A stretch of DNA of 64,000 bases, taken from assembly GCA_048940925.1 (NCBI GenBank), contig JBHLOC010000014.1, positions 34,371 through 98,370 on the forward strand. The letters run 5' to 3'. The notes below the pieces were generated by a model. That model did not search any database, had not been told where the DNA came from, and saw only the letters and a program-made list of their open reading frames with translations. A program made the position numbers and the translations under genes. This document shows positions 8,448-52,569 of the stretch, one piece after another. The stretch is from Promethearchaeota archaeon. Lineage in GTDB: Archaea > Asgardarchaeota > Lokiarchaeia > Sigyniarchaeales > SOKP01. The number at the start of each line of letters is the position of its first letter. Position 1 is the first letter of the stretch.

Positions 8448-8777
8448 TTAATCTTGGATTAAAATATTTTCCTTAGGGAATCCCTCTTTTATAAGAAATT
8501 TCTTTAATTTAAAACGATGATCTCCTTGTAGTTCAATATAATTGTCTCCATATGTACCACCAGATGCACATTTTTTTTTCGCTTTAGTGATGAGGTTATC
8601 TAAATCTATATTTAAGTCGCCACTAAACTTAACAATAGAGACAATTTTCCCCCATCTTCTTTTTTCGTTGTAAATCTTTATTCGTTGTTCTTCAGCTTCT
8701 AATTTCTCACATATACATAACACCTTAGGAAAACTACATAAAGGGCAAATACTCTCCTCTTTAATTTCAATAATCAC
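8448..8777 (-). CDS. Translation initiation factor aIF1 (SUI1 family)
   Basis: ICPLC..P..LCIC zinc knuckle, KRRWGK.V, KKKCASGGT and IELQGDHR. Confidence 0.92.
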   Translation of the reverse strand: MIIEIKEESICPLCSFPKVLCICEKLEAEEQRIKIYNEKRRWGKIVSIVKFSGDLNIDLDNLITKAKKKCASGGTYGDNYIELQGDHRFKLKKFLIKEGFPKENILIQD

Positions 8778-24164: not shown

Positions 24165-24530
24165 ATGAATGGCAAACAAAAATTTTATCTACTACTCGGA
24201 TTATTTCAAATTATTCTAGTTATGACTGTATTTTTCAGTATAAATGGAATTATTTCTTTTGCTGCTGCTCAAGCCCCAACCACCAGTGATTCTTATAATT
24301 CTTCTACAGCAGGGATGTTAGGAATAGCTGCAGGGATCGCAGTGGGAGCAGCCGTCATAGGAAGCGGTATGGCTATAAAAACAGTTGGTACTTCTGCAAT
24401 TGCTGCATTAACCGAGAGAGAAGAATATTTTTTTAAGGCCTTCTTAGTTGTAGCTTTAGGAGAAGCTTTGGCCATATATGGTCTTATCGTAGCAATATTA
24501 TTATGGACAAAGATCCCAAACCCAGCTTAG
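24165..24530 (+). CDS. atpK: A/V-type ATP synthase proteolipid subunit K (c), with an N-terminal signal-like extension
   Basis: Gly/Ala-rich hairpin, AIAALTERE loop, and ALGEALAIYGL with the ion-binding Glu. Confidence 0.92.
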   Translation: MNGKQKFYLLLGLFQIILVMTVFFSINGIISFAAAQAPTTSDSYNSSTAGMLGIAAGIAVGAAVIGSGMAIKTVGTSAIAALTEREEYFFKAFLVVALGEALAIYGLIVAILLWTKIPNPA

Positions 24531-24609
24531 ACCTTTTTAAAGAAATATCCATATTCAATTAAGATTTTATGACATAAACATATAGTATTATAATTATGGT
24601 GATATTTAA

Positions 24610-25650
24610 ACGAGTGTTCCTGTTCCTGCATATGAATATACCTTTATAAAAATTGGATTTTTAAAGCAATTAGTATTAGATGATATTGCCTTACAACACT
24701 TAAAAGTACTTAGGGATATACAAGAATTTATTGGATTTATTGAGCCTTATTATCCAGATCTAAAAGTTAATGATTATACTATCGAAGAAATTGAGATGGC
24801 TTTATATCATATTTTTTTTAAACTAATTGGAAAAATAATCTCCTTTTCGCCATTAAATATGCGGCGTTTTCTAAAAGATTATTTACTCAAATACGAAATA
24901 ATGAATATCAAGCAAATCATTTTAGGCTTAATAATAGGCATGACAAATGAAGAAAAATCAAAAAATGTAAATTTTCTAATAGAGGAATATTTAGAAAATA
25001 CTGATTTTATAAAAAAATTGATTGAAATATCTTCCTTAGAAGAAATTCAATTATATATGAAAAAAACTATTTACAATAAGGCAATTAGAGAGGGTATTCT
25101 TTATTTTAAGAATAATAATGAAATATTTGTGCTTGAGGCATTTTTAGATCAATTATATTATTTTATCTTGTTGAGAAGAGAAAACATGTATAATAAAAAA
25201 GAAAAAAATATGATATCTTTATTTAATTCCTTTAAAACAGAAATATATAATATTAATTTGATGTATCGTGGTATTATAAATGGAATTGATAAAAATCTTC
25301 TCTCTCAATTCATAGTAAACAATTACTTATTTTTAGATGAAAATAAAATTAATGTTCTTCTGGATCAAAAAAATTTAAATGATTTTTTTTTGGAACTTGA
25401 TATAATTTTACGAAAAATAATTGAACTGAAGTATTTTATAAATATTTCTGAGGAAGAGCATCCGATGTGGGAACTCGAAAGGTTATATGAGCAATATTAT
25501 TTTAAAAAAGTTAAAATTACATTTGAAGATATTGAACATTTAACAATTTATCGTATTTTGGAATTGATTATAAAGAAAGAAAAAGAAATTAACCTAGAAA
25601 TTATACCAAATGTAGTGAGGATTATTAATAGGAAGTTTAAGTCATTATAA
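24610..25650 (+). CDS. atpC: A/V-type ATP synthase subunit C (d); probable ACG start at 24610
   Basis: Position in the operon; KYEIMNIK, LEAFLDQLYY and EIYNI…RG. Frame is open from 24610 (SVPVPAYEYTFIKIG…). Confidence 0.8.
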   Translation, partial: TSVPVPAYEYTFIKIGFLKQLVLDDIALQHLKVLRDIQEFIGFIEPYYPDLKVNDYTIEEIEMALYHIFFKLIGKIISFSPLNMRRFLKDYLLKYEIMNIKQIILGLIIGMTNEEKSKNVNFLIEEYLENTDFIKKLIEISSLEEIQLYMKKTIYNKAIREGILYFKNNNEIFVLEAFLDQLYYFILLRRENMYNKKEKNMISLFNSFKTEIYNINLMYRGIINGIDKNLLSQFIVNNYLFLDENKINVLLDQKNLNDFFLELDIILRKIIELKYFINISEEEHPMWELERLYEQYYFKKVKITFEDIEHLTIYRILELIIKKEKEINLEIIPNVVRIINRKFKSL

Positions 25651-25702
25651 ACTGAAAATTAATCTATTAGTTAAAAAAAATAAAGATAAATGCATTAAAA
25701 TT

Positions 25703-26014
25703 ATGGAGCTTTTTAATTGGTTAAAAGATATAGAAAAAATTTATGAAGATTTAATTGATAAAGAAAAAAAAGAAAGTGCAGATAAAATTCAATTATTAGA
25801 AGAACAATATAAAAAAGATCTTGAAGAAATTTTAGAAAAAAAGAGAAATTTTGTTAAATCAACTCAAGAAAATCTTTCAAAAGAAGTTTTAGATTATATT
25901 GAAGATTTTGAAAAAAAATCTAACGACGTAATTGATAGAATTAGGAAAAATTATCAAAATGATAAGAGTAAATTGATGCAAACAATTTTAGAAAAATTGG
26001 GGTTAAAATTTTAA
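25703..26014 (+). CDS. A/V-type ATP synthase subunit H/G (peripheral stalk)
   Basis: 103-aa charged coiled coil within the ATPase operon. Confidence 0.65.
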   Translation: MELFNWLKDIEKIYEDLIDKEKKESADKIQLLEEQYKKDLEEILEKKRNFVKSTQENLSKEVLDYIEDFEKKSNDVIDRIRKNYQNDKSKLMQTILEKLGLKF

Positions 26015-26334
26015 TGCCTGAGCAAAAAATATATGTATTAGGAAAAGACGAGATCGTTACAATGTTAGGATTATTAGGAATAGAAGGTAAAGTTATTAAT
26101 GAGAATGATGATTTTTTAAAAGAATTTAACAATCTAGTAAGCAATCCCTCGATTATAATGATAATCATAGCATTAGATTTAGCAGATGATACTATTGATT
26201 TCTTAATTGATTTCAAACTTAATATAAGAAAACCATTTATATTTTATCTGCCAAATATTTTTCAATTAGATGATGATTCTAAGGATCTTTTTTTAACGAA
26301 AATTAATGAATCTATTAGAGGCATCTTAACATAA
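26014..26334 (+). CDS. atpF: A/V-type ATP synthase subunit F
   Basis: KIYVLGKDEIVTMLGLLGIEG N-terminal signature; size and operon position fit. Confidence 0.85.
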   Translation: MPEQKIYVLGKDEIVTMLGLLGIEGKVINENDDFLKEFNNLVSNPSIIMIIIALDLADDTIDFLIDFKLNIRKPFIFYLPNIFQLDDDSKDLFLTKINESIRGILT

Positions 26335-26343
26335 AGGAGGTGA

Positions 26344-27075
26344 ATAAATTTTTCAGATGAGAGCAATTTAAAGAAGTCTGTAGGGGCTTTAGGATTATAT
26401 TTAATAAATAAAGCGCTACAAGAAATCAAGGAATCTCATAGACAAATGTTATTTCAAAAAGCAGAAATGAAAAATAATTATAATGAAATGATAGACGAAG
26501 CTTCTTTAAAAGTAAAAAACAAATTTCTTGAAGATTATGATCAATTTTTAAATGAACATTTAACATCGAGCTTATTAAAATTGAAAGAAACAATTCTGAA
26601 TCTTAAGAATCAATTAAAAGAAGATTTAAGAATATCACTTTTTGAGTTAATTAAAACTAAATTAGATAAAAATTATTCAACATATATTGAATATATTTTA
26701 AATTTTATTAAACTAGTAAGTGAGAATATAGGTGGTCATGGAAAAATTAACTTTTTTTTTAATTTAAGAGATTTTAATTACTTTAATAAAAATTCCAATA
26801 AAATTAAAAGTATATTCAGAGATTCAATCACTATTGAGCAATCTTCTCGTAAGTTTTTAGGAGGATTTGAAGTGACAATGCCTCAAGCATCCATTTCTTA
26901 TGATTATTCGTTTGATACCCTTATAAATAGAAATTATACTCAAATTGAGTTGGAGTTTTCAAAAATTATTTCGGATGTTGAATACAAAAAATTATATGAT
27001 GAATTTGAAGAATTTATTCAAGAAAAAAAAAAAGATATAGAGGGAATTTTAAGTAAATATGACCAAATCAATTAG
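26344..27075 (+). CDS. atpE: A/V-type ATP synthase subunit E; true start probably upstream of ATG 26446
   Basis: Coiled N-half and FLGGF…YDYSFDTLI motif. Frame is open from 26344, directly after GGAGGTGA. Confidence 0.8.
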   Translation: MNFSDESNLKKSVGALGLYLINKALQEIKESHRQMLFQKAEMKNNYNEMIDEASLKVKNKFLEDYDQFLNEHLTSSLLKLKETILNLKNQLKEDLRISLFELIKTKLDKNYSTYIEYILNFIKLVSENIGGHGKINFFFNLRDFNYFNKNSNKIKSIFRDSITIEQSSRKFLGGFEVTMPQASISYDYSFDTLINRNYTQIELEFSKIISDVEYKKLYDEFEEFIQEKKKDIEGILSKYDQIN

Positions 27076-28894
27076 ACAAGTTAATTCTGGACAGATTTCT
27101 GCGATTAATGGTTCTTTGATCGAAATAAAGGGTTTAGAGCATCAAATTCGACTTCATGACTTAATTGAAGTATCTAAACATAGTGTTTTGGGAGAAGTTA
27201 TTCAAATATATTCAGATAAGGTGATTGCTCAATGTTTTGAAGATACAAGTAATATGAGATTGCATGAAAAAGTAATTGATTTAAAGGAACCTTTATCTAT
27301 GGAATTAGCTCCAGGATTGTTATCAAGTATTTTTGATGGAATTCAACGACCCTTAGAAAATTTTTTTACACAATTCAAAGATACTGGATTTTTAGAAAAA
27401 GGTATTACGTTACCTCCGTTATCCAGAACTAAAAAATGGCACTTTATTCCTCAAAAAGAGGTAAATAATAAGGTAAGTGGTGGTGATGTAATTGGAACAG
27501 TACAAGAAACTACTTCTATAATACATTATATACTATTACCTCCAGAGGAATTTGGAATTTTAACTTACATTGCAGAAGAAGGGGATTATACTATAACTGA
27601 TGAAATTTACAAATTAAAAAACGGTAAAGAAGAAAAAAATTTTAATATGATCCAAAAATGGCCTGTTACACGATCTAGGCCCTTTTTTAAAAAAATAAGC
27701 CCTTTAGAACCATTAAATACAGGAATGCGGGTTATCGATTTACTATTCCCTGTCGCGAAAGGTGGCACTGTGGCAGTTCCGGGGGGATTTGGTACCGGTA
27801 AAACAGTTATTCAACAATCCCTAGCTAAATGGTGCGATGCTGATATAATAATTTTTGTAGGATGTGGTGAAAGAGGCAATGAAGTCGCTGATAGTTTAAA
27901 GGAATTCTCTAGACTCATTGATCCGGTGACTGGACGACCTTTATTAGAGAGAGTAGTTGTTATTGCAAATACTTCTAATATGCCCGTATCAGCTCGTGAA
28001 GCGAGCATTTTTTCAGGAATAACTATTGGAGAATATTATAGAGATATGGGATATGATGTTGCTCTTATGGCAGATAGTACCTCAAGATGGGCAGAATCTC
28101 TAAGAGAAATTTCAGGATTATTAGAAGAAATGCCTGCTGAGGAAGGATATCCAGCTTATTTACCCTCAAAACTTTCAAGTTTTTACGAAAGAGCAGGTGT
28201 TATTGAAACTTTAGGAAATAATGAATTAAATGATAACAAAATGGGTTCTTTAACGATTATTGGTTCTGTATCACCCCCTTCTGGCGATTTTAGCGAGCCT
28301 GTGACAGCAACAACTAAGCGTTTTGTTCAAGTTTTCTGGGCATTAGATGCAAGACTCGCATATGCCAAACATTATCCCGCTTTAAATTGGCTTGATTCAT
28401 ATTCAAATTACCCTGAATATATTGCTGATTGGTGGCTTAAAAAAGATATTAATTGGTCAGAGTTGGATCTCGATTGGTTTGATTGTCGAACTCAAGTTAA
28501 TGAAATTTTATCGATAGAAAATAATTTAAAAAATATTACTCAATTAATTGGAGAAGAAAATCTGCCAGAAGATCAGCAATTAATTCTCTTTATTGCAAAA
28601 ATAATTAAAGAAGGTTTTCTAATTCAAAATGCATTTGATGATATTGATAATTATACTTCTGCTGAAAAGTTATTGCGACAAATAAAAATTGTCCTTTTAT
28701 TAAATAAAGAGGCTAAAGAACTTTTGGATAAAGGGATTATTATTGAAGAGATTAAAGATCTTGAGATTGTGAATGACATTTTAAGAATTAGTAGTTCCAT
28801 TCCTAATGACGAGTCCTATAAAATTGATGAATTAAAAAATGAAATGATTAAAAAAACTAAATCCATGAAAACAACTTATCGATTTATGAGATAA
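27059..28894 (+). CDS. atpA: A/V-type ATP synthase catalytic subunit A
   Basis: GGFGTGKT P-loop, [26 protein letters not shown] and [12 protein letters not shown]. Confidence 0.97.
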
Positions 28895-28896
28895 AA

Positions 28897-30288
28897 ATGA
28901 GTGTAAGATATAAAAATATAAAACAGATCATAGGTCCGCTTATCTTTTTAGAAAATAACCATAATGTGCAATATGGAGAAATTGTTGAAGTTAATACCAT
29001 CGAACAAAAAAACCGTATTGGCCAAGTAATAAAAATTGATGAAGAATTAATCGTTGTTGAAGTATTTGAAGATACTAAAGGAATGTCTTCAGAAAATTCA
29101 ACACTTATTTTTACTGGAGAACCGTTTAAATTGAAAATTTCAAATGATATGTTGGGAGGTATTTTTAATTCCTTAGGAAAACCTATTGATATTTTCACAA
29201 AAAAAGTTTTGAATTCTGATATTATAACTAATGTAGAACGAGATATTAATGGTGCGCCCATAAATCCATTTGCAAGGCAGTATCCTTCTCAAGTAATACA
29301 GACTGGGATTTCTACTATAGATGGTCTATTTACCTTAATTAGAGGTCAAAAGCTTCCTATTTTTAGTGGGCAAGGACTTTCACACAATAAAATTGCAGCC
29401 CAAATTGTGACACAAGCTAAAGTTTTGACAGAGGAACCTTTTCTAATAATCTTTTGTGGAATTGGAATTACTCAAGATGAAGCAATTTTTTTTGTAGATC
29501 GCTTTCAAAAAAGTGGGAATATTCAAAATATAATATCATTTATTAATTTTGCAGACGATCCAGTAATGGAGCGATTAATAATTCCTCGAGTTGCCTTAAC
29601 AACCGCGGAATATTTTGCTTTTGATAAAGAAATGCATGTTCTTGTTATCCTAATTGATATGACAAATTATGCTGAAGCTTTGAGGGAGCTTAGTTCAGCA
29701 AAAGAAGAAATACCTAGTAGAAAAGGGTATCCTGGATATTTATATTCAGATTTTGCCTCCATTTATGAAAGAACAGGGCTAATAAAAGATAAGAAGGGGT
29801 CAATTACTCAAATTCCGATATTAACAATGCCTAATGATGATATTTCTCATCCTATTCCAGATACTTCGGGATATATCACTGAAGGACAATTAGTATTGAA
29901 TCGAACTTTGGAAAAAAAGGGGATTTACCCCCCCATTGAAGTTTTAGCTTCTATCTCGCGACTTATGAAAGATGCTATAGGTGATGGAACTACTAGAGAG
30001 GATCATGCCGATATTAGTTCTCAATTATTAGCTTCTTATTCCACTGCTCTTGAAGTTAGAGATTTGATTTCAGTTGTAGGAGAAGATAGTTTAAATTTAG
30101 AACAAAAAGCATTATTAAAATTTGCAGATGATTTTGAATTATTATTTATGAATCAGAAATTTAATGAAAATCGTGATTTTTCAAAATCATTTTCAATTGC
30201 ATGGAAAGTATTAGCGAATCTTCCAAGGAATCAGTTATATAGAATTCATCAAAATTTTATCAATAAATATTATCCATCAGAGGTGTAA
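28897..30288 (+). CDS. atpB: A/V-type ATP synthase subunit B
   Basis: [43 protein letters not shown] and SRLMK. Confidence 0.96.
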
Positions 30289-30924
30289 ATAATAAGTTTT
30301 AGAAAGATACAACCAACAAAAACTAATGTTATTAATCTAACGAAGAAGTTAGATTTTGTTACAAAAGGAGAAAGTTTTTTAGAATATAAAGAAGAACAAT
30401 TAATGCAACAAATTAAAACTCTATGGTCAGACTTTAAATTATCTCAAAAAAATTTTTTTGTATTATATAAAAAGGCTCTTTCAAAATTATATGAAACTTA
30501 TCAAGAGATGGGAAAACGGCAAGTAGTTATGATTAATAACATCAATATTATCCAATTTAAACCGTTTATAGATATAAATTATAGGAAAAAAATAGGAATT
30601 TTATTACCATATATTAATTTCGAATTAAAACAAGAAGAGCAGCTTCCAGCTTACTCATTTGAAAATACAAGTCATCATCTTGATGAGTTAATAGTTATTT
30701 TAAAAGAATTCTTTGAAAGCTTAATTGTATTTGCTGAAAAAGAAGATATTTTATTAAAATTGACTTTAAATTTAAAAAAAATAAGCCGTAGAATAAGTGG
30801 ATTAAAAAATGTAATTAAACCTCAATTAATATCAGATATCAAAACAATAAAAGAAATTTTAGAAGAACTTGAAAGAGAAAGTTTTGTCCGATTAAAAAAA
30901 ACAAAAAGTTTAATTAAAGAATAA
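30289..30924 (+). CDS. atpD: A/V-type ATP synthase subunit D; probable ATA start at 30289/30292
   Basis: N-terminal PTK..(V)..L.KKL….KG..FL..K motif lies upstream of the first ATG (30403). C-terminal RRI..LKNVI.P and LEELERESFVRLK. Confidence 0.9.
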   Translation: MISFRKIQPTKTNVINLTKKLDFVTKGESFLEYKEEQLMQQIKTLWSDFKLSQKNFFVLYKKALSKLYETYQEMGKRQVVMINNINIIQFKPFIDINYRKKIGILLPYINFELKQEEQLPAYSFENTSHHLDELIVILKEFFESLIVFAEKEDILLKLTLNLKKISRRISGLKNVIKPQLISDIKTIKEILEELERESFVRLKKTKSLIKE

Positions 30925-30944: not shown

Positions 30945-33215
30945 ATGAAATTTGACAATAAAATGAGTTTATTTAAAGTCACATTAGATAGGGAATACAA
31001 GGACATGTTTTTAACAACTCTTGCTGAAGCCAAGGTTACCCATATAAAAGCAAGAAGTGAATATCAAGTGAAAAAAAGTAAAGAAGAAGAAGACATATTT
31101 AAAGAAAAAGTCAAAAACTTAAGGCTTAACCTAGATGTTTTATTTAAAAAATTAGAAATTGATGAACTTGACTTTCAAGGAATAAAAGTGAAATCCAAAG
31201 AAAAAGTAATATATAATTCTAAAGACTCACATGAGTTAATAAATGATCTTTTAGAAGAAATTAATTATTATACAAATCGATTCGACGAATTAGAAAGATA
31301 TATTACAAATTCAAAAATAGAATTAGAAAAAATCACTAGTTTAAAATTTACCTATCACTTTCTTGAACAATTTAACTTAAATCGTAGTAATCTAGCTAGT
31401 TTAACTCAATTTTCTTTTAGAGCTTATACTACTTTTTCAAAGAATTTAGGAATAATAAATTCTCTGTTTGATTTTTCTGAATTTCCTCATATCATTCAAA
31501 CTGAACCTATAACGAGTGAGAGATCTGCAATTTTTATAATTTATCTAAAAGAACAAGAAAGTGATTTGAGAGAGAAACTTAGCATTATTCATGCTGAAGA
31601 AGTACCTATAATAAAGAAATACTTGACTCCAGATGGAATTAACTTTGAGAGAATAGATAAGGAAGTTGAACTTATGGTGAATTATCTATCAAAATATGAA
31701 AAAGAAATAAATAGAATTAGAGAGGCAAATTTATTAAAATTTGCGGCGATGAATGAAGTTATATCTAATCTTGAAGAATATAATTGGGCAGAAAATCAGT
31801 TTGAAGAGTTATCATTAAATCGATTAAGTTATAAATTTTTTACACTTCAAGTAAAAAAAGAAGATATAGCACAGAAATTAACTGATCTTTTTCATGATAA
31901 AATAGATATTGAAATATTTGATATTGGAAAAAGGGGCGAAATATTAAAAAATGAAAAAATAAAAGAAGAAGGAGTTAACCATATAACAAAAGAAAATATT
32001 ATTGATAAAAAAGAAGACTCAAAAGAAATAAAAGAAGATATAGAAAAGGGGACTCCTACTATGATGACTCATAATCGTATAATAAGACCTTTTGAAACAT
32101 TAACAAGAATGTATGGTACACCCTCCTACTCTGAAATTGACCCTACTCCTTTTTTATTCATTACATTTCCTTTACTATTTGGATTTATGTTTGGAGATAT
32201 AGGACATGGACTAGTCTTAATAATTTCTGGAATTGTTGGTTCTATAGTATTTAAAAAGCGAGGAGGAGATCTCTATAATTTTTGTTGGATAATTTTCTGG
32301 TGCGGTATATGGGCTGTTTTAGGTGGTTTTCTCTACGGTGAATTTTTTGGATCTGAAGATATACTAGGATACCGTCTTAAATCCATTCCAATTCCACTTC
32401 CTTTCATAGGAGTAACAACTTTCCATGATCCCTTACACAATATAATACCAATCTTAATGTTAACATTAGCCATTGGAGTTATTCAAATTAATTTAGGGTG
32501 GACACTTCAATTTATAAATTATTGGAAGGAATCCAAAAAATATCTTGCTTTTAGTGAATCTTTGATAAAAATTTTATTTTTAGATGGTTTCATATTATTA
32601 CTTGTTCTATGGGGATTTAATCTTAATGCATGGTTTTCTGCACCATTCCCTCCTATTTTATTACCTTTAATACCAGGTCTTTTATTGGTAATTCTTAAAC
32701 CACTTGGAAAAGTCTTTGGAATATCGTATTTAAAAGCATCTTCAGTTGCTGCACTATTAGGAGAAGGATCAATTGATACATTTGAAACTGTTTTATCAGT
32801 GCCGAGTAATGTTTTATCATATATAAGGATACTAGCCTTAGCCTTAGCGCATGTAGCATTGATGCTTGCAATTACAGCGATGATTGAAACAATTCCAGGA
32901 TCAGGTATATTTATCCAAATAATAATTGTAATAGCATTGATATTTGGGAATATTGTAGTAATTGTTTTGGAGGGAATTCTTGTATTTTTAAATGCTCTTA
33001 GGTTACACTTTTATGAATTCTTTTTCAAGTTTTTTCATGGCTCTGGCTCTGAATTCATTCCTTTTATTTTGAAGGATGATTATTCAGTCATGAATTTTAA
33101 TGTAGATGAGAAAGGTGATATAATTTCAACAGAAATAGAAAAAGAGATAGAAACCGAGAAAACTAAAGAAGAAATTGAAGATGCGCGGAAATATATCTAC
33201 AATCAATTTTTTTAA
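30945..33215 (+). CDS. atpI: A/V-type ATP synthase subunit I (a)
   Basis: YG.P.YSEIDPTP, FGFMFGDIGHG, SYIRILAL (essential Arg) and LRLHFYEFF.KF. Confidence 0.95.
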   Translation: MKFDNKMSLFKVTLDREYKDMFLTTLAEAKVTHIKARSEYQVKKSKEEEDIFKEKVKNLRLNLDVLFKKLEIDELDFQGIKVKSKEKVIYNSKDSHELINDLLEEINYYTNRFDELERYITNSKIELEKITSLKFTYHFLEQFNLNRSNLASLTQFSFRAYTTFSKNLGIINSLFDFSEFPHIIQTEPITSERSAIFIIYLKEQESDLREKLSIIHAEEVPIIKKYLTPDGINFERIDKEVELMVNYLSKYEKEINRIREANLLKFAAMNEVISNLEEYNWAENQFEELSLNRLSYKFFTLQVKKEDIAQKLTDLFHDKIDIEIFDIGKRGEILKNEKIKEEGVNHITKENIIDKKEDSKEIKEDIEKGTPTMMTHNRIIRPFETLTRMYGTPSYSEIDPTPFLFITFPLLFGFMFGDIGHGLVLIISGIVGSIVFKKRGGDLYNFCWIIFWCGIWAVLGGFLYGEFFGSEDILGYRLKSIPIPLPFIGVTTFHDPLHNIIPILMLTLAIGVIQINLGWTLQFINYWKESKKYLAFSESLIKILFLDGFILLLVLWGFNLNAWFSAPFPPILLPLIPGLLLVILKPLGKVFGISYLKASSVAALLGEGSIDTFETVLSVPSNVLSYIRILALALAHVALMLAITAMIETIPGSGIFIQIIIVIALIFGNIVVIVLEGILVFLNALRLHFYEFFFKFFHGSGSEFIPFILKDDYSVMNFNVDEKGDIISTEIEKEIETEKTKEEIEDARKYIYNQFF

Positions 33216-52387: not shown

Positions 52388-52569
52388 ATATTCTATTAAT
52401 TTAGAGAAACAAGAATTACTTTAAGTTTTTTAAAATTATTTTTCTTTTCCTATTGTTGTCATAAATATGTGTAACAATTTTCGATAAGTGTAAATTTATA
52501 TAAAATTTGTGATATAATGTAAATAAAGATACAAAAAACTATGTTTGGTGAAAGATTATAGCTTATATA

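Follow-up and report, generated by a model that had tools for sequence, protein, structure and literature searches.

How are genes translated when their reading frames hold no ATG, GTG or TTG codon ahead of a conserved N-terminus? This question was raised by a 64,000-nucleotide stretch of a Promethearchaeota archaeon (GenBank assembly GCA_048940925.1, contig JBHLOC010000014.1, positions 34,371 to 98,370 of the forward strand; called the window in what follows), in which three genes of a V/A-type ATPase operon, atpC, atpE and atpD, appeared to begin at non-canonical codons. The host genome is a 4.8-Mb metagenome-assembled genome (MAG) of 90 contigs, with 29.6% G+C and an estimated contamination of 8.4%, and its closest named relatives are Promethearchaeota/Promethearchaeia MAGs (Loki-type Asgard archaea). 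The operon consists of nine genes on the + strand in the order K-C-H-F-E-A-B-D-I, and we compared it with its counterparts in 17-21 genomes assigned to the same GTDB genus and in outgroup families within the order. The results suggested, with a probability of roughly 78%, that the three genes are intact and would be initiated at near-AUG codons, namely ACG for subunit C, AUA for subunit D, and AUU, AUA or AUC for subunit E in the relatives. The genes and the Shine-Dalgarno (SD) motifs ahead of them are as follows.

24598..24602, + strand: SD of atpC, GGTGA, 7 nt ahead of ACG
24610..25650, + strand: atpC (V/A-ATPase subunit C/d), with ACG 24610-24612 as putative start; PF01992 E=2.6e-22, AhaC TIGR02923
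26334..26343, + strand: SD of atpE, 10 nt, AAGGAGGTGA, the longest among the relatives compared
26344..27075, + strand: atpE open frame, putative start ATA 26344-26346 or TTT 26350-26352; subunit E by orthologue profile
30280..30285, + strand: SD of atpD, GAGGTG, inside the end of atpB, at a spacing of 5 to ATA 30292
30292..30924, + strand: atpD (central-stalk subunit D), with ATA 30292-30294 as putative start; PF01813 E=9.4e-32, TIGR00309 over its cut-off

All coordinates of the initial annotation were reproduced when the sequence was read again. The open codons ahead of the first ATG number 62 in atpC, 34 in atpE and 38 in atpD; they contain no ATG, GTG or TTG, and the list of open reading frames (ORFs) accordingly opened the genes at 24796 (C), 26446 (E) and 30403 (D). 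The identities of subunits C and D were clear, with 80.1 bits for PF01992 (cut-off 29), 110.9 bits for PF01813 (cut-off 25.7) and 80.2 bits for TIGR00309 (cut-off 72.25). For subunit E, Pfam and NCBIfam returned nothing of use when searched with the single sequence; a profile built from 15 orthologues matched a solved V-type subunit E (E=1e-4), and PF01991 is on record for the atpE orthologues in two relatives (L237 and L242). A single-sequence search of atpC against solved structures likewise gave nothing useful. Since the genome has a single copy of atpE and no more than one match of atpD was found in it, these genes must be expressed.

Domain coverage was then assessed with stop-to-stop translations that included the extensions. 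In atpC, positions 10-318 of the vATP-synt_AC39 profile corresponded to residues 20-328, and positions 4-330 of NCBIfam AhaC to residues 7-332. In atpD, positions 1-195 of the Pfam ATP-synt_D profile corresponded to residues 13-206, and positions 2-206 of NCBIfam V_ATPase_subD to residues 5-209; the alignments with solved D subunits began at their residue 9-11, which is query residue 6-7. In the orthologue alignments, conservation at the protein level reached the proposed starts of C, D and E and stopped there. These results indicated that the extensions belong to the proteins. It could be argued that translation begins at the downstream ATGs, leaving the extensions as untranslated chance or relic sequence, and gene callers limited to ATG, GTG and TTG do produce such models, such as the 173-aa D protein P0005. 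However, conservation as protein up to the proposed start and not beyond it, together with family profiles and solved D subunits that align from the first residues, makes this very improbable, and a start at 30403 would cost D about 37 residues of its N-terminal stalk helix.

The initial annotation had proposed that the three genes are initiated under SD guidance at ACG or ATA (or TTT), and the comparison of orthologues strongly supported this for atpC (ACG) and atpD (ATA). In atpC, an in-frame TAA (24607-24609) is directly followed by ACG 24610, with GGTGA 7 nt before it. The codon aligned with Met1 was ACG in 15 of the 17 genus members and TTG in the other 2, and the outgroups carried ATG at this position; GGTGA or GGTGG was located 5-7 nt ahead of ACG or TTG. 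In the same alignment, ACG occupied about 9% of the cells at seven further conserved Thr columns, most of the rest being ACA or ACT, and it makes up 7.1% of the Thr codons genome-wide. Frozen at this one position and rare at the other Thr columns, ACG therefore behaves as a start codon and not as an internal Thr codon. The predicted N-terminus of subunit C from the ACG start is (M)SVPVPAYEYTFIK. Plant organelles convert ACG to AUG by mRNA editing, and a single C-to-U change would likewise turn the atpC codon into AUG, so editing of the mRNA was considered as a source of canonical starts. We give it a very small chance: AUA, AUU and AUC would each require a different change to G, TTG stands in for ACG in three lineages, and to our knowledge no mRNA editing of such a kind is known in archaea.

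In atpD, the order of GAGGTG, TAA 30286-30288 and ATA ATA AGT given by the initial annotation was confirmed, and the start was refined to the second ATA (30292) on the basis of homology and SD spacing. The start-aligned codon was ATA in 11, ATT in 6 and ATC in 4 of the 21 genus representatives, followed by AGT TTT, while the eight outgroups had ATG (7) or GTG (1) followed by TCA or AGT and then TTT (M-S-F..KPTK). Because the ATH codon (ATA, ATT or ATC) aligns with the outgroup ATG, it marks the Met1 position. The usual layout in the genus is GGTG, the atpB stop, one variable codon and ATH. GGTG was found at the end of atpB in 20-21 of the 21 members, with a varying amino acid before Val, and the atpB stop precedes the atpD start by 3 nt in most members and by 6 or 7 nt in others. 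In about 15 members an in-frame stop lies one codon upstream of the atpD start, which leaves no room for another start. In two related MAGs, the NCBI annotation itself lets atpD begin at ATA or ATT.

Such proximity of stop and start could also point to recoding, in which the N-terminus would come from ribosomes that read through the atpB or atpF stop, or that shift frame after starting at the out-of-frame ATG 24596. In about 16 of the 21 genomes the atpB stop shares the frame of atpD, an in-frame ATG-AGT-TGA precedes atpE in several relatives, and ATG 24596 overlaps the atpC SD. However, the atpB stop is out of frame in four relatives (L006, L012, L018 and L019), in which ATH-AGT-TTT is kept, and both ATG 24596 and ATG-AGT-TGA are missing in many relatives. 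Among the relatives compared, the arrangement expected of programmed readthrough or frameshifting was not found, as the frame relation of atpB to atpD was variable and the upstream ATGs were unconserved. There is no conserved slippery site, and the genome-wide pattern described below needs no upstream ORF. We thus consider recoding quite improbable.

That a single operon shows three unusual starts, in a MAG with an estimated contamination of 8.4%, might also reflect consensus or assembly errors, or genes in decay. To this explanation we give hardly any weight, since the same codon classes recurred in 17-21 independently assembled genomes, the frames are intact, and atpE and atpD are each represented by one match. 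Three Logan contigs (runs SRR30758823 and ERR15824517) were 100.000% identical to the window over 4.4-4.8 kb and spanned ACG 24610, ATA-AAT-TTT 26344-52 and ATA-ATA 30289-94. All three start sites were thus identical in independent assemblies, and no ATG or TTG was present there.

For atpE, the situation in the host genome is more complex. The GGAGGTGA at 26336-43 includes an in-frame TGA (26341-43) and is followed by ATA AAT TTT TCA. In the genus, atpE is laid out as an SD, six bases, ATT or ATA, and then TCA GAA GAA; the relatives' SDs are GAGGTGA, GAGTTGA or AAGGTGA, and the distance from the atpF stop to the atpE start is 6-15 nt, often with the TGA inside the SD-like motif. The start-aligned codon was ATT in 12, ATA in 4 and TTT in 1 of 17 genus members, the last being the host genome. 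Over 19 relatives, including closer public ones, the start codon was ATT (14), ATA (4) or ATC (1), and TTT at this position was seen in the host genome only among 21 relatives. Therefore, of the choice "ATA (or TTT)" made in the initial annotation, the coordinates and the extension stood, and the codon homologous to the relatives' starts proved to be TTT 26350 rather than ATA 26344. The SD spacing is 6 for TTT 26350 and 0 for ATA 26344, and ATA 26344-26346 is the sole near-cognate codon upstream of the conserved part of the protein. ATA 26344 was disfavoured as the start because no long ORF in the genome starts at spacing 0 after GGAGGTGA. In the same context on another contig (C43), GGAGGTGA ATA AAT TTG, the codon at spacing 6 is used. 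We regard TTT as the start in the host genome with somewhat less than even odds; ATA 26344 is a more tentative candidate, and another codon is unlikely. A homopolymer error was also tested as an origin of TTT: removal of one T from the run of five would still leave TTT before TCA, and ATT would require the removal of two bases. An independent assembly (L245) carried the same sequence at atpE, and the homopolymer explanation was therefore dropped. A search of metagenome contigs with the E protein as query found no close relatives.

The initial annotation had called for a genome-wide count of the codons that follow SD motifs, and we made such a tally from ORFs of 150 codons or more, using strong SD 5-mers at their 5' ends and requiring an in-frame upstream stop within 10 codons. 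Ahead of ATG starts the SD signal reads GGTGA, its A falling at -7, and ATG starts peak at spacings 5-7; counted from the A of GGTGA, the spacing is 7 in atpC, 6 in atpE (at TTT) and 5 in atpD, which matches this canonical range. Strong SDs led to a canonical start in 423 cases (ATG 295, TTG 101, GTG 27). In the 234 cases without one, the codons at spacing 5-7 included ATT 54, ATA 40, ATC 14 and ACG 7. These four codons thus made up 49% of the 234, compared with 9.9% after internal SD-like motifs, an enrichment of about five-fold, and with this background subtracted about 90 of the 115 are expected to be real. The 115 or so genes compare with 419-423 that have a canonical start. AAA, AAT and TTT showed no enrichment in the same tally. 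When a 5-mer SD was required of both classes, SD strength was equal for non-canonical and canonical starts. Judged from these counts, near-cognate starts would account for about 18% of the strongly SD-led genes and 2-3% of the long ORFs, as a lower bound. That ATG dominates despite A+T-rich mutation pressure indicates that AUH (AUA, AUU or AUC) and ACG are less favoured, so their retention at particular genes needs an explanation. The initiator-type tRNA detected by ARAGORN has an ordinary CAT anticodon. The 16S rRNA was not found in the assembly, and the anti-SD was therefore not read directly. Tallies in samples of 400-800 kb from other lineages, with G033 (54% GC) left out, gave 9/21 for G006, 2/9 for G023 and 4/17 for the outgroup G032, all of them small counts. 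At 52558 (+ strand) of the window, an SD-supported ATA (GGTGA, spacing 6) opens a 268-codon membrane-protein frame; an ATG lies four codons downstream, and this start is ambiguous.

The positions of D and E directly behind atpB and atpF also suggest coupled termination-reinitiation, in which these subunits would be made mainly by ribosomes finishing the preceding gene, with the SD-led de novo route being secondary and the identity of the codon counting for less. The short distances after the atpB and atpF stops agree with this, and the overlaps of H with F and of E with A show that coupling is used within the operon. However, atpC begins 79 nt past the end of atpK and nonetheless carries ACG. 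Genome-wide, a same-strand upstream gene ended within 120 nt of 39% of the non-canonical starts, compared with 55% of the canonical ones, and the enrichment was restricted to near-cognate codons, so codon identity matters. Coupling as the main route is therefore unlikely.

The remaining genes of the operon behaved differently. K, H, F, A, B and I start with ATG in nearly all of the same genomes, and the claim that A, B and K have ATG starts was borne out. For K, ATG was present in 16 of 17 relatives and TTG in one. The H/G-like ORF had ATG in 16/16 relatives with a match, atpF had ATG except for ACG in one relative (L045, genome G017), and atpI had ATG in most relatives, one (L043, genome G020) lacking ATG at the aligned position. 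Because these six genes keep ATG in the same genomes, the odd starts of C, D and E are gene-specific and inherited. Among closer public relatives, L236 and L237 have ACG (C), ATT (E) and ATA (D), and L241 has ATT for D. In a subunit-B tree the window grouped with L236, L237 and L239 (support 94/90) inside a clade of all genus members (100/99); L242 and L048 sat on long branches of uncertain placement. On this tree, ACG changed to TTG twice (L041/L045 and L239), ATH to ATG once (atpD of L239), and ATT to TTT once (atpE of the host genome). The alignments that had been asked for in the initial annotation thus showed conserved extensions and non-canonical Met1-aligned codons throughout the genus, and the non-canonical start state of C, D and E appears to be old and stable, not frozen. 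The retention of a given codon at each of these genes over a deep genus implies selection for, or at the least tolerance of, weak starts in the three stalk subunits.

Taken in order, the proposed initiation would proceed as follows. The 3' end of 16S rRNA would pair with the GGTGA-type SD 5-7 nt upstream and place the small ribosomal subunit, and initiator Met-tRNA (anticodon CAU), bound in the P site, would tolerate the near-cognate codon, so that the protein begins with Met. In the case of D and E, re-initiation may contribute, through ribosomes coming from the atpB or atpF stop 3-15 nt upstream. For C, re-initiation is not available because of the 79 nt after atpK, and initiation would be de novo. 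The three starts would be the local expression of a genome-wide habit of the lineage. From the sequence we infer decoding as Met by the initiator tRNA, a lower initiation efficiency and a possible role in subunit ratios. The A/V-ATPase, whose composition is A3B3DF(EG)2 d a c-ring, contains one copy each of C and D and two of E, and it is plausible that weak starts lower the synthesis of these low-copy subunits relative to the others, as the initial annotation had proposed, with a loose fit to the data. Three genes drawn at random from the nine would avoid A, B and K with a probability of about 0.24. The relation of codon to SD was also considered. In L239, which alone in the window's subclade has ATG at atpD, the SD is the weaker AAGTG instead of AGGTG, and the host genome combines the worst atpE codon with the longest SD, AAGGAGGTGA. 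Both fit a compensation between SD and codon strength, which as yet would be a single anecdote.

A possible control of such starts is encoded in the window itself:

8448..8767, - strand: aIF1/SUI1 paralogue, PF01253 59.9 bits; putative start ATT 8767-8765, 8 nt after GAGGTGA

This gene probably starts at ATT 8767-8765; an alternative in-frame GTG lies in the SD-like GAGGTGA four codons upstream of ATT. A second aIF1 gene (contig C31:2287-2502) has no canonical start, and both aIF1/SUI1 genes lack ATG and begin with ATT AAA. Given such AUU-like starts, a feedback of aIF1 on start stringency is conceivable by analogy. A stronger version, in which start-codon identity is a heritable, gene-specific setting that keeps certain parts of multi-protein machines, here the ATPase stalk subunits C, D and E, at low synthesis and under the control of an AUU-initiated aIF1, is in our view doubtful. 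If it were true, it would represent an archaeal forerunner of eukaryotic eIF1-controlled start stringency, and UUU at atpE behind a 10-nt SD would mean that a start with two mismatches can still work when the SD anchors the ribosome strongly.

Several observations weigh against conserved near-AUG initiation and against its role in tuning. The host codon at the atpE position is TTT, with two mismatches from AUG, and TTT showed no genome-wide enrichment (3.0% compared with 4.6% in the internal control); for the competing ATA 26344, ATG starts are nearly absent at spacing 0 (2 compared with 42 at the peak). Start identity is mutable: in L239 and L240 subunit D starts with ATG and subunit C with TTG, and in L242 all of C, D and E start with ATG. 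The invariance of Ile at the start columns of D and E is uninformative, because among the 24 Ile-rich columns of D, 7 show no variation. Finally, F, I and H/G are equally low-copy yet start with ATG, which the tuning idea leaves unexplained.

Near-cognate starts are known from other systems. The E. coli genes infC and pcnB start with AUU and were stated to be the sole two confirmed non-canonical starts in E. coli (10.1101/063800). Like atpC, atpD and atpE, infC (IF3) and pcnB are intact genes with a near-cognate start behind an SD and use of the initiator tRNA, and there the weak codon limits or regulates synthesis. Unlike them, the host would use at least three genes of one operon and around a hundred genes genome-wide, with ACG beside AUH, in an archaeon with aIF1/aIF2-type factors. 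Of an infC-type autoregulation only the precondition was observed, namely that both SUI1 genes appear to begin with ATT AAA, one of them with a GTG alternative. When all 64 codons were measured in E. coli, ACG and AUC reporters yielded full-length protein with N-terminal Met (10.1101/063800). This is the decoding assumed for the host, although the reporters were artificial and of low yield, whereas the host codons appear to be conserved native starts of essential subunits. Ribosome profiling of Haloferax volcanii found that about 30% of the newly detected putative initiation sites were near-cognate (PMC7261190). Those sites were alternative or minor ones and were set aside by the authors, whereas the host ones appear to be conserved primary starts of core genes. 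Animal mitochondria (NCBI table 2) start at AUA, AUU and AUC without an SD, with a single modified tRNA-Met and with AUA reassigned to Met. They share with the host the same codon set as regular starts in an A+T-rich genome, but the host uses the standard code and is SD-led. In eukaryotes, eIF1 controls start stringency and is autoregulated through its own poor start context. Both host aIF1/SUI1 genes appear AUU-started in parallel, and a comparable feedback on the weak starts of atpC, atpE and atpD may exist; unlike in the eIF1 system, sites would be selected by the SD and not by scanning.

In the literature on non-canonical start codons in Asgard archaea and Lokiarchaeia, we found no report of this kind. 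Recent reviews of archaeal and Asgard translation discuss the scarcity of SD sites in Lokiarchaea and leave a near-cognate habit unmentioned. Near-cognate starts as such are known elsewhere; what appears to be new here is their occurrence in an archaeon, in many genes, with ACG included and with conservation gene by gene. This has practical weight, as Asgard proteomes are mined for eukaryote-like proteins and callers limited to ATG, GTG and TTG shorten such genes. About half of the 115 public subunit-D entries of the clade are truncated at the N-terminus and span no more than 93% of the protein, and the host genome's own subunit-D calls are 205 and 173 aa, compared with 210 aa for the full protein. 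The findings are also relevant to the evolution of start-codon stringency and of translational set-points.

The other genes of the operon are the following.

24165..24530, + strand: atpK (proteolipid c subunit), ATG start; PF00137 E=7.6e-15
25703..26014, + strand: H/G-like ORF of 103 aa, coiled coil, ATG start, between C and F
26014..26334, + strand: atpF, ATG overlapping the preceding stop (TAATG); PF01990 E=1.3e-7
27059..28894, + strand: atpA, ATG start
28897..30288, + strand: atpB, ATG start; the final GAG GTG and the stop TAA carry the atpD SD
30945..33215, + strand: atpI (a subunit), ATG start; NCBIfam subunit I E=1.6e-57

The 103-aa ORF had no family match in Pfam and NCBIfam profile searches, and from its position between C and F it is the probable peripheral-stalk H/G subunit. 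The atpK product contains one hairpin, matched by PF00137 at residues 54-113; ahead of it lie an additional hydrophobic helix at the N-terminus and a linker rich in Ser and Thr. The best atpA matches outside Promethearchaeota (loci L058-L133, 44-51% identity) were mostly bacterial V-type ATPases, from Spirochaetota, Clostridia, Planctomycetota and Poribacteria, with few other archaea. These matches suggest that the operon type may have become common to bacteria through transfer. Three close relatives carry a further A-subunit-like gene of about 610 aa, which stands alone behind the operon and a small ORF (L237:9954-11789, L238:3591-5426 and L239:10415-12247). The atpA of one outgroup (L049, genome G034) carries a long in-frame insert in the P-loop region that is intein-like, with a homing-endonuclease part; the window atpA has no such insert. 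In addition, genome G031 of family f4 has two subunit-D genes, on contigs C121 and C112. In the tree, the B subunit beside the C121 copy was placed, with a long branch, among the members of the window's genus, and this copy could belong to a second, transferred ATPase operon.

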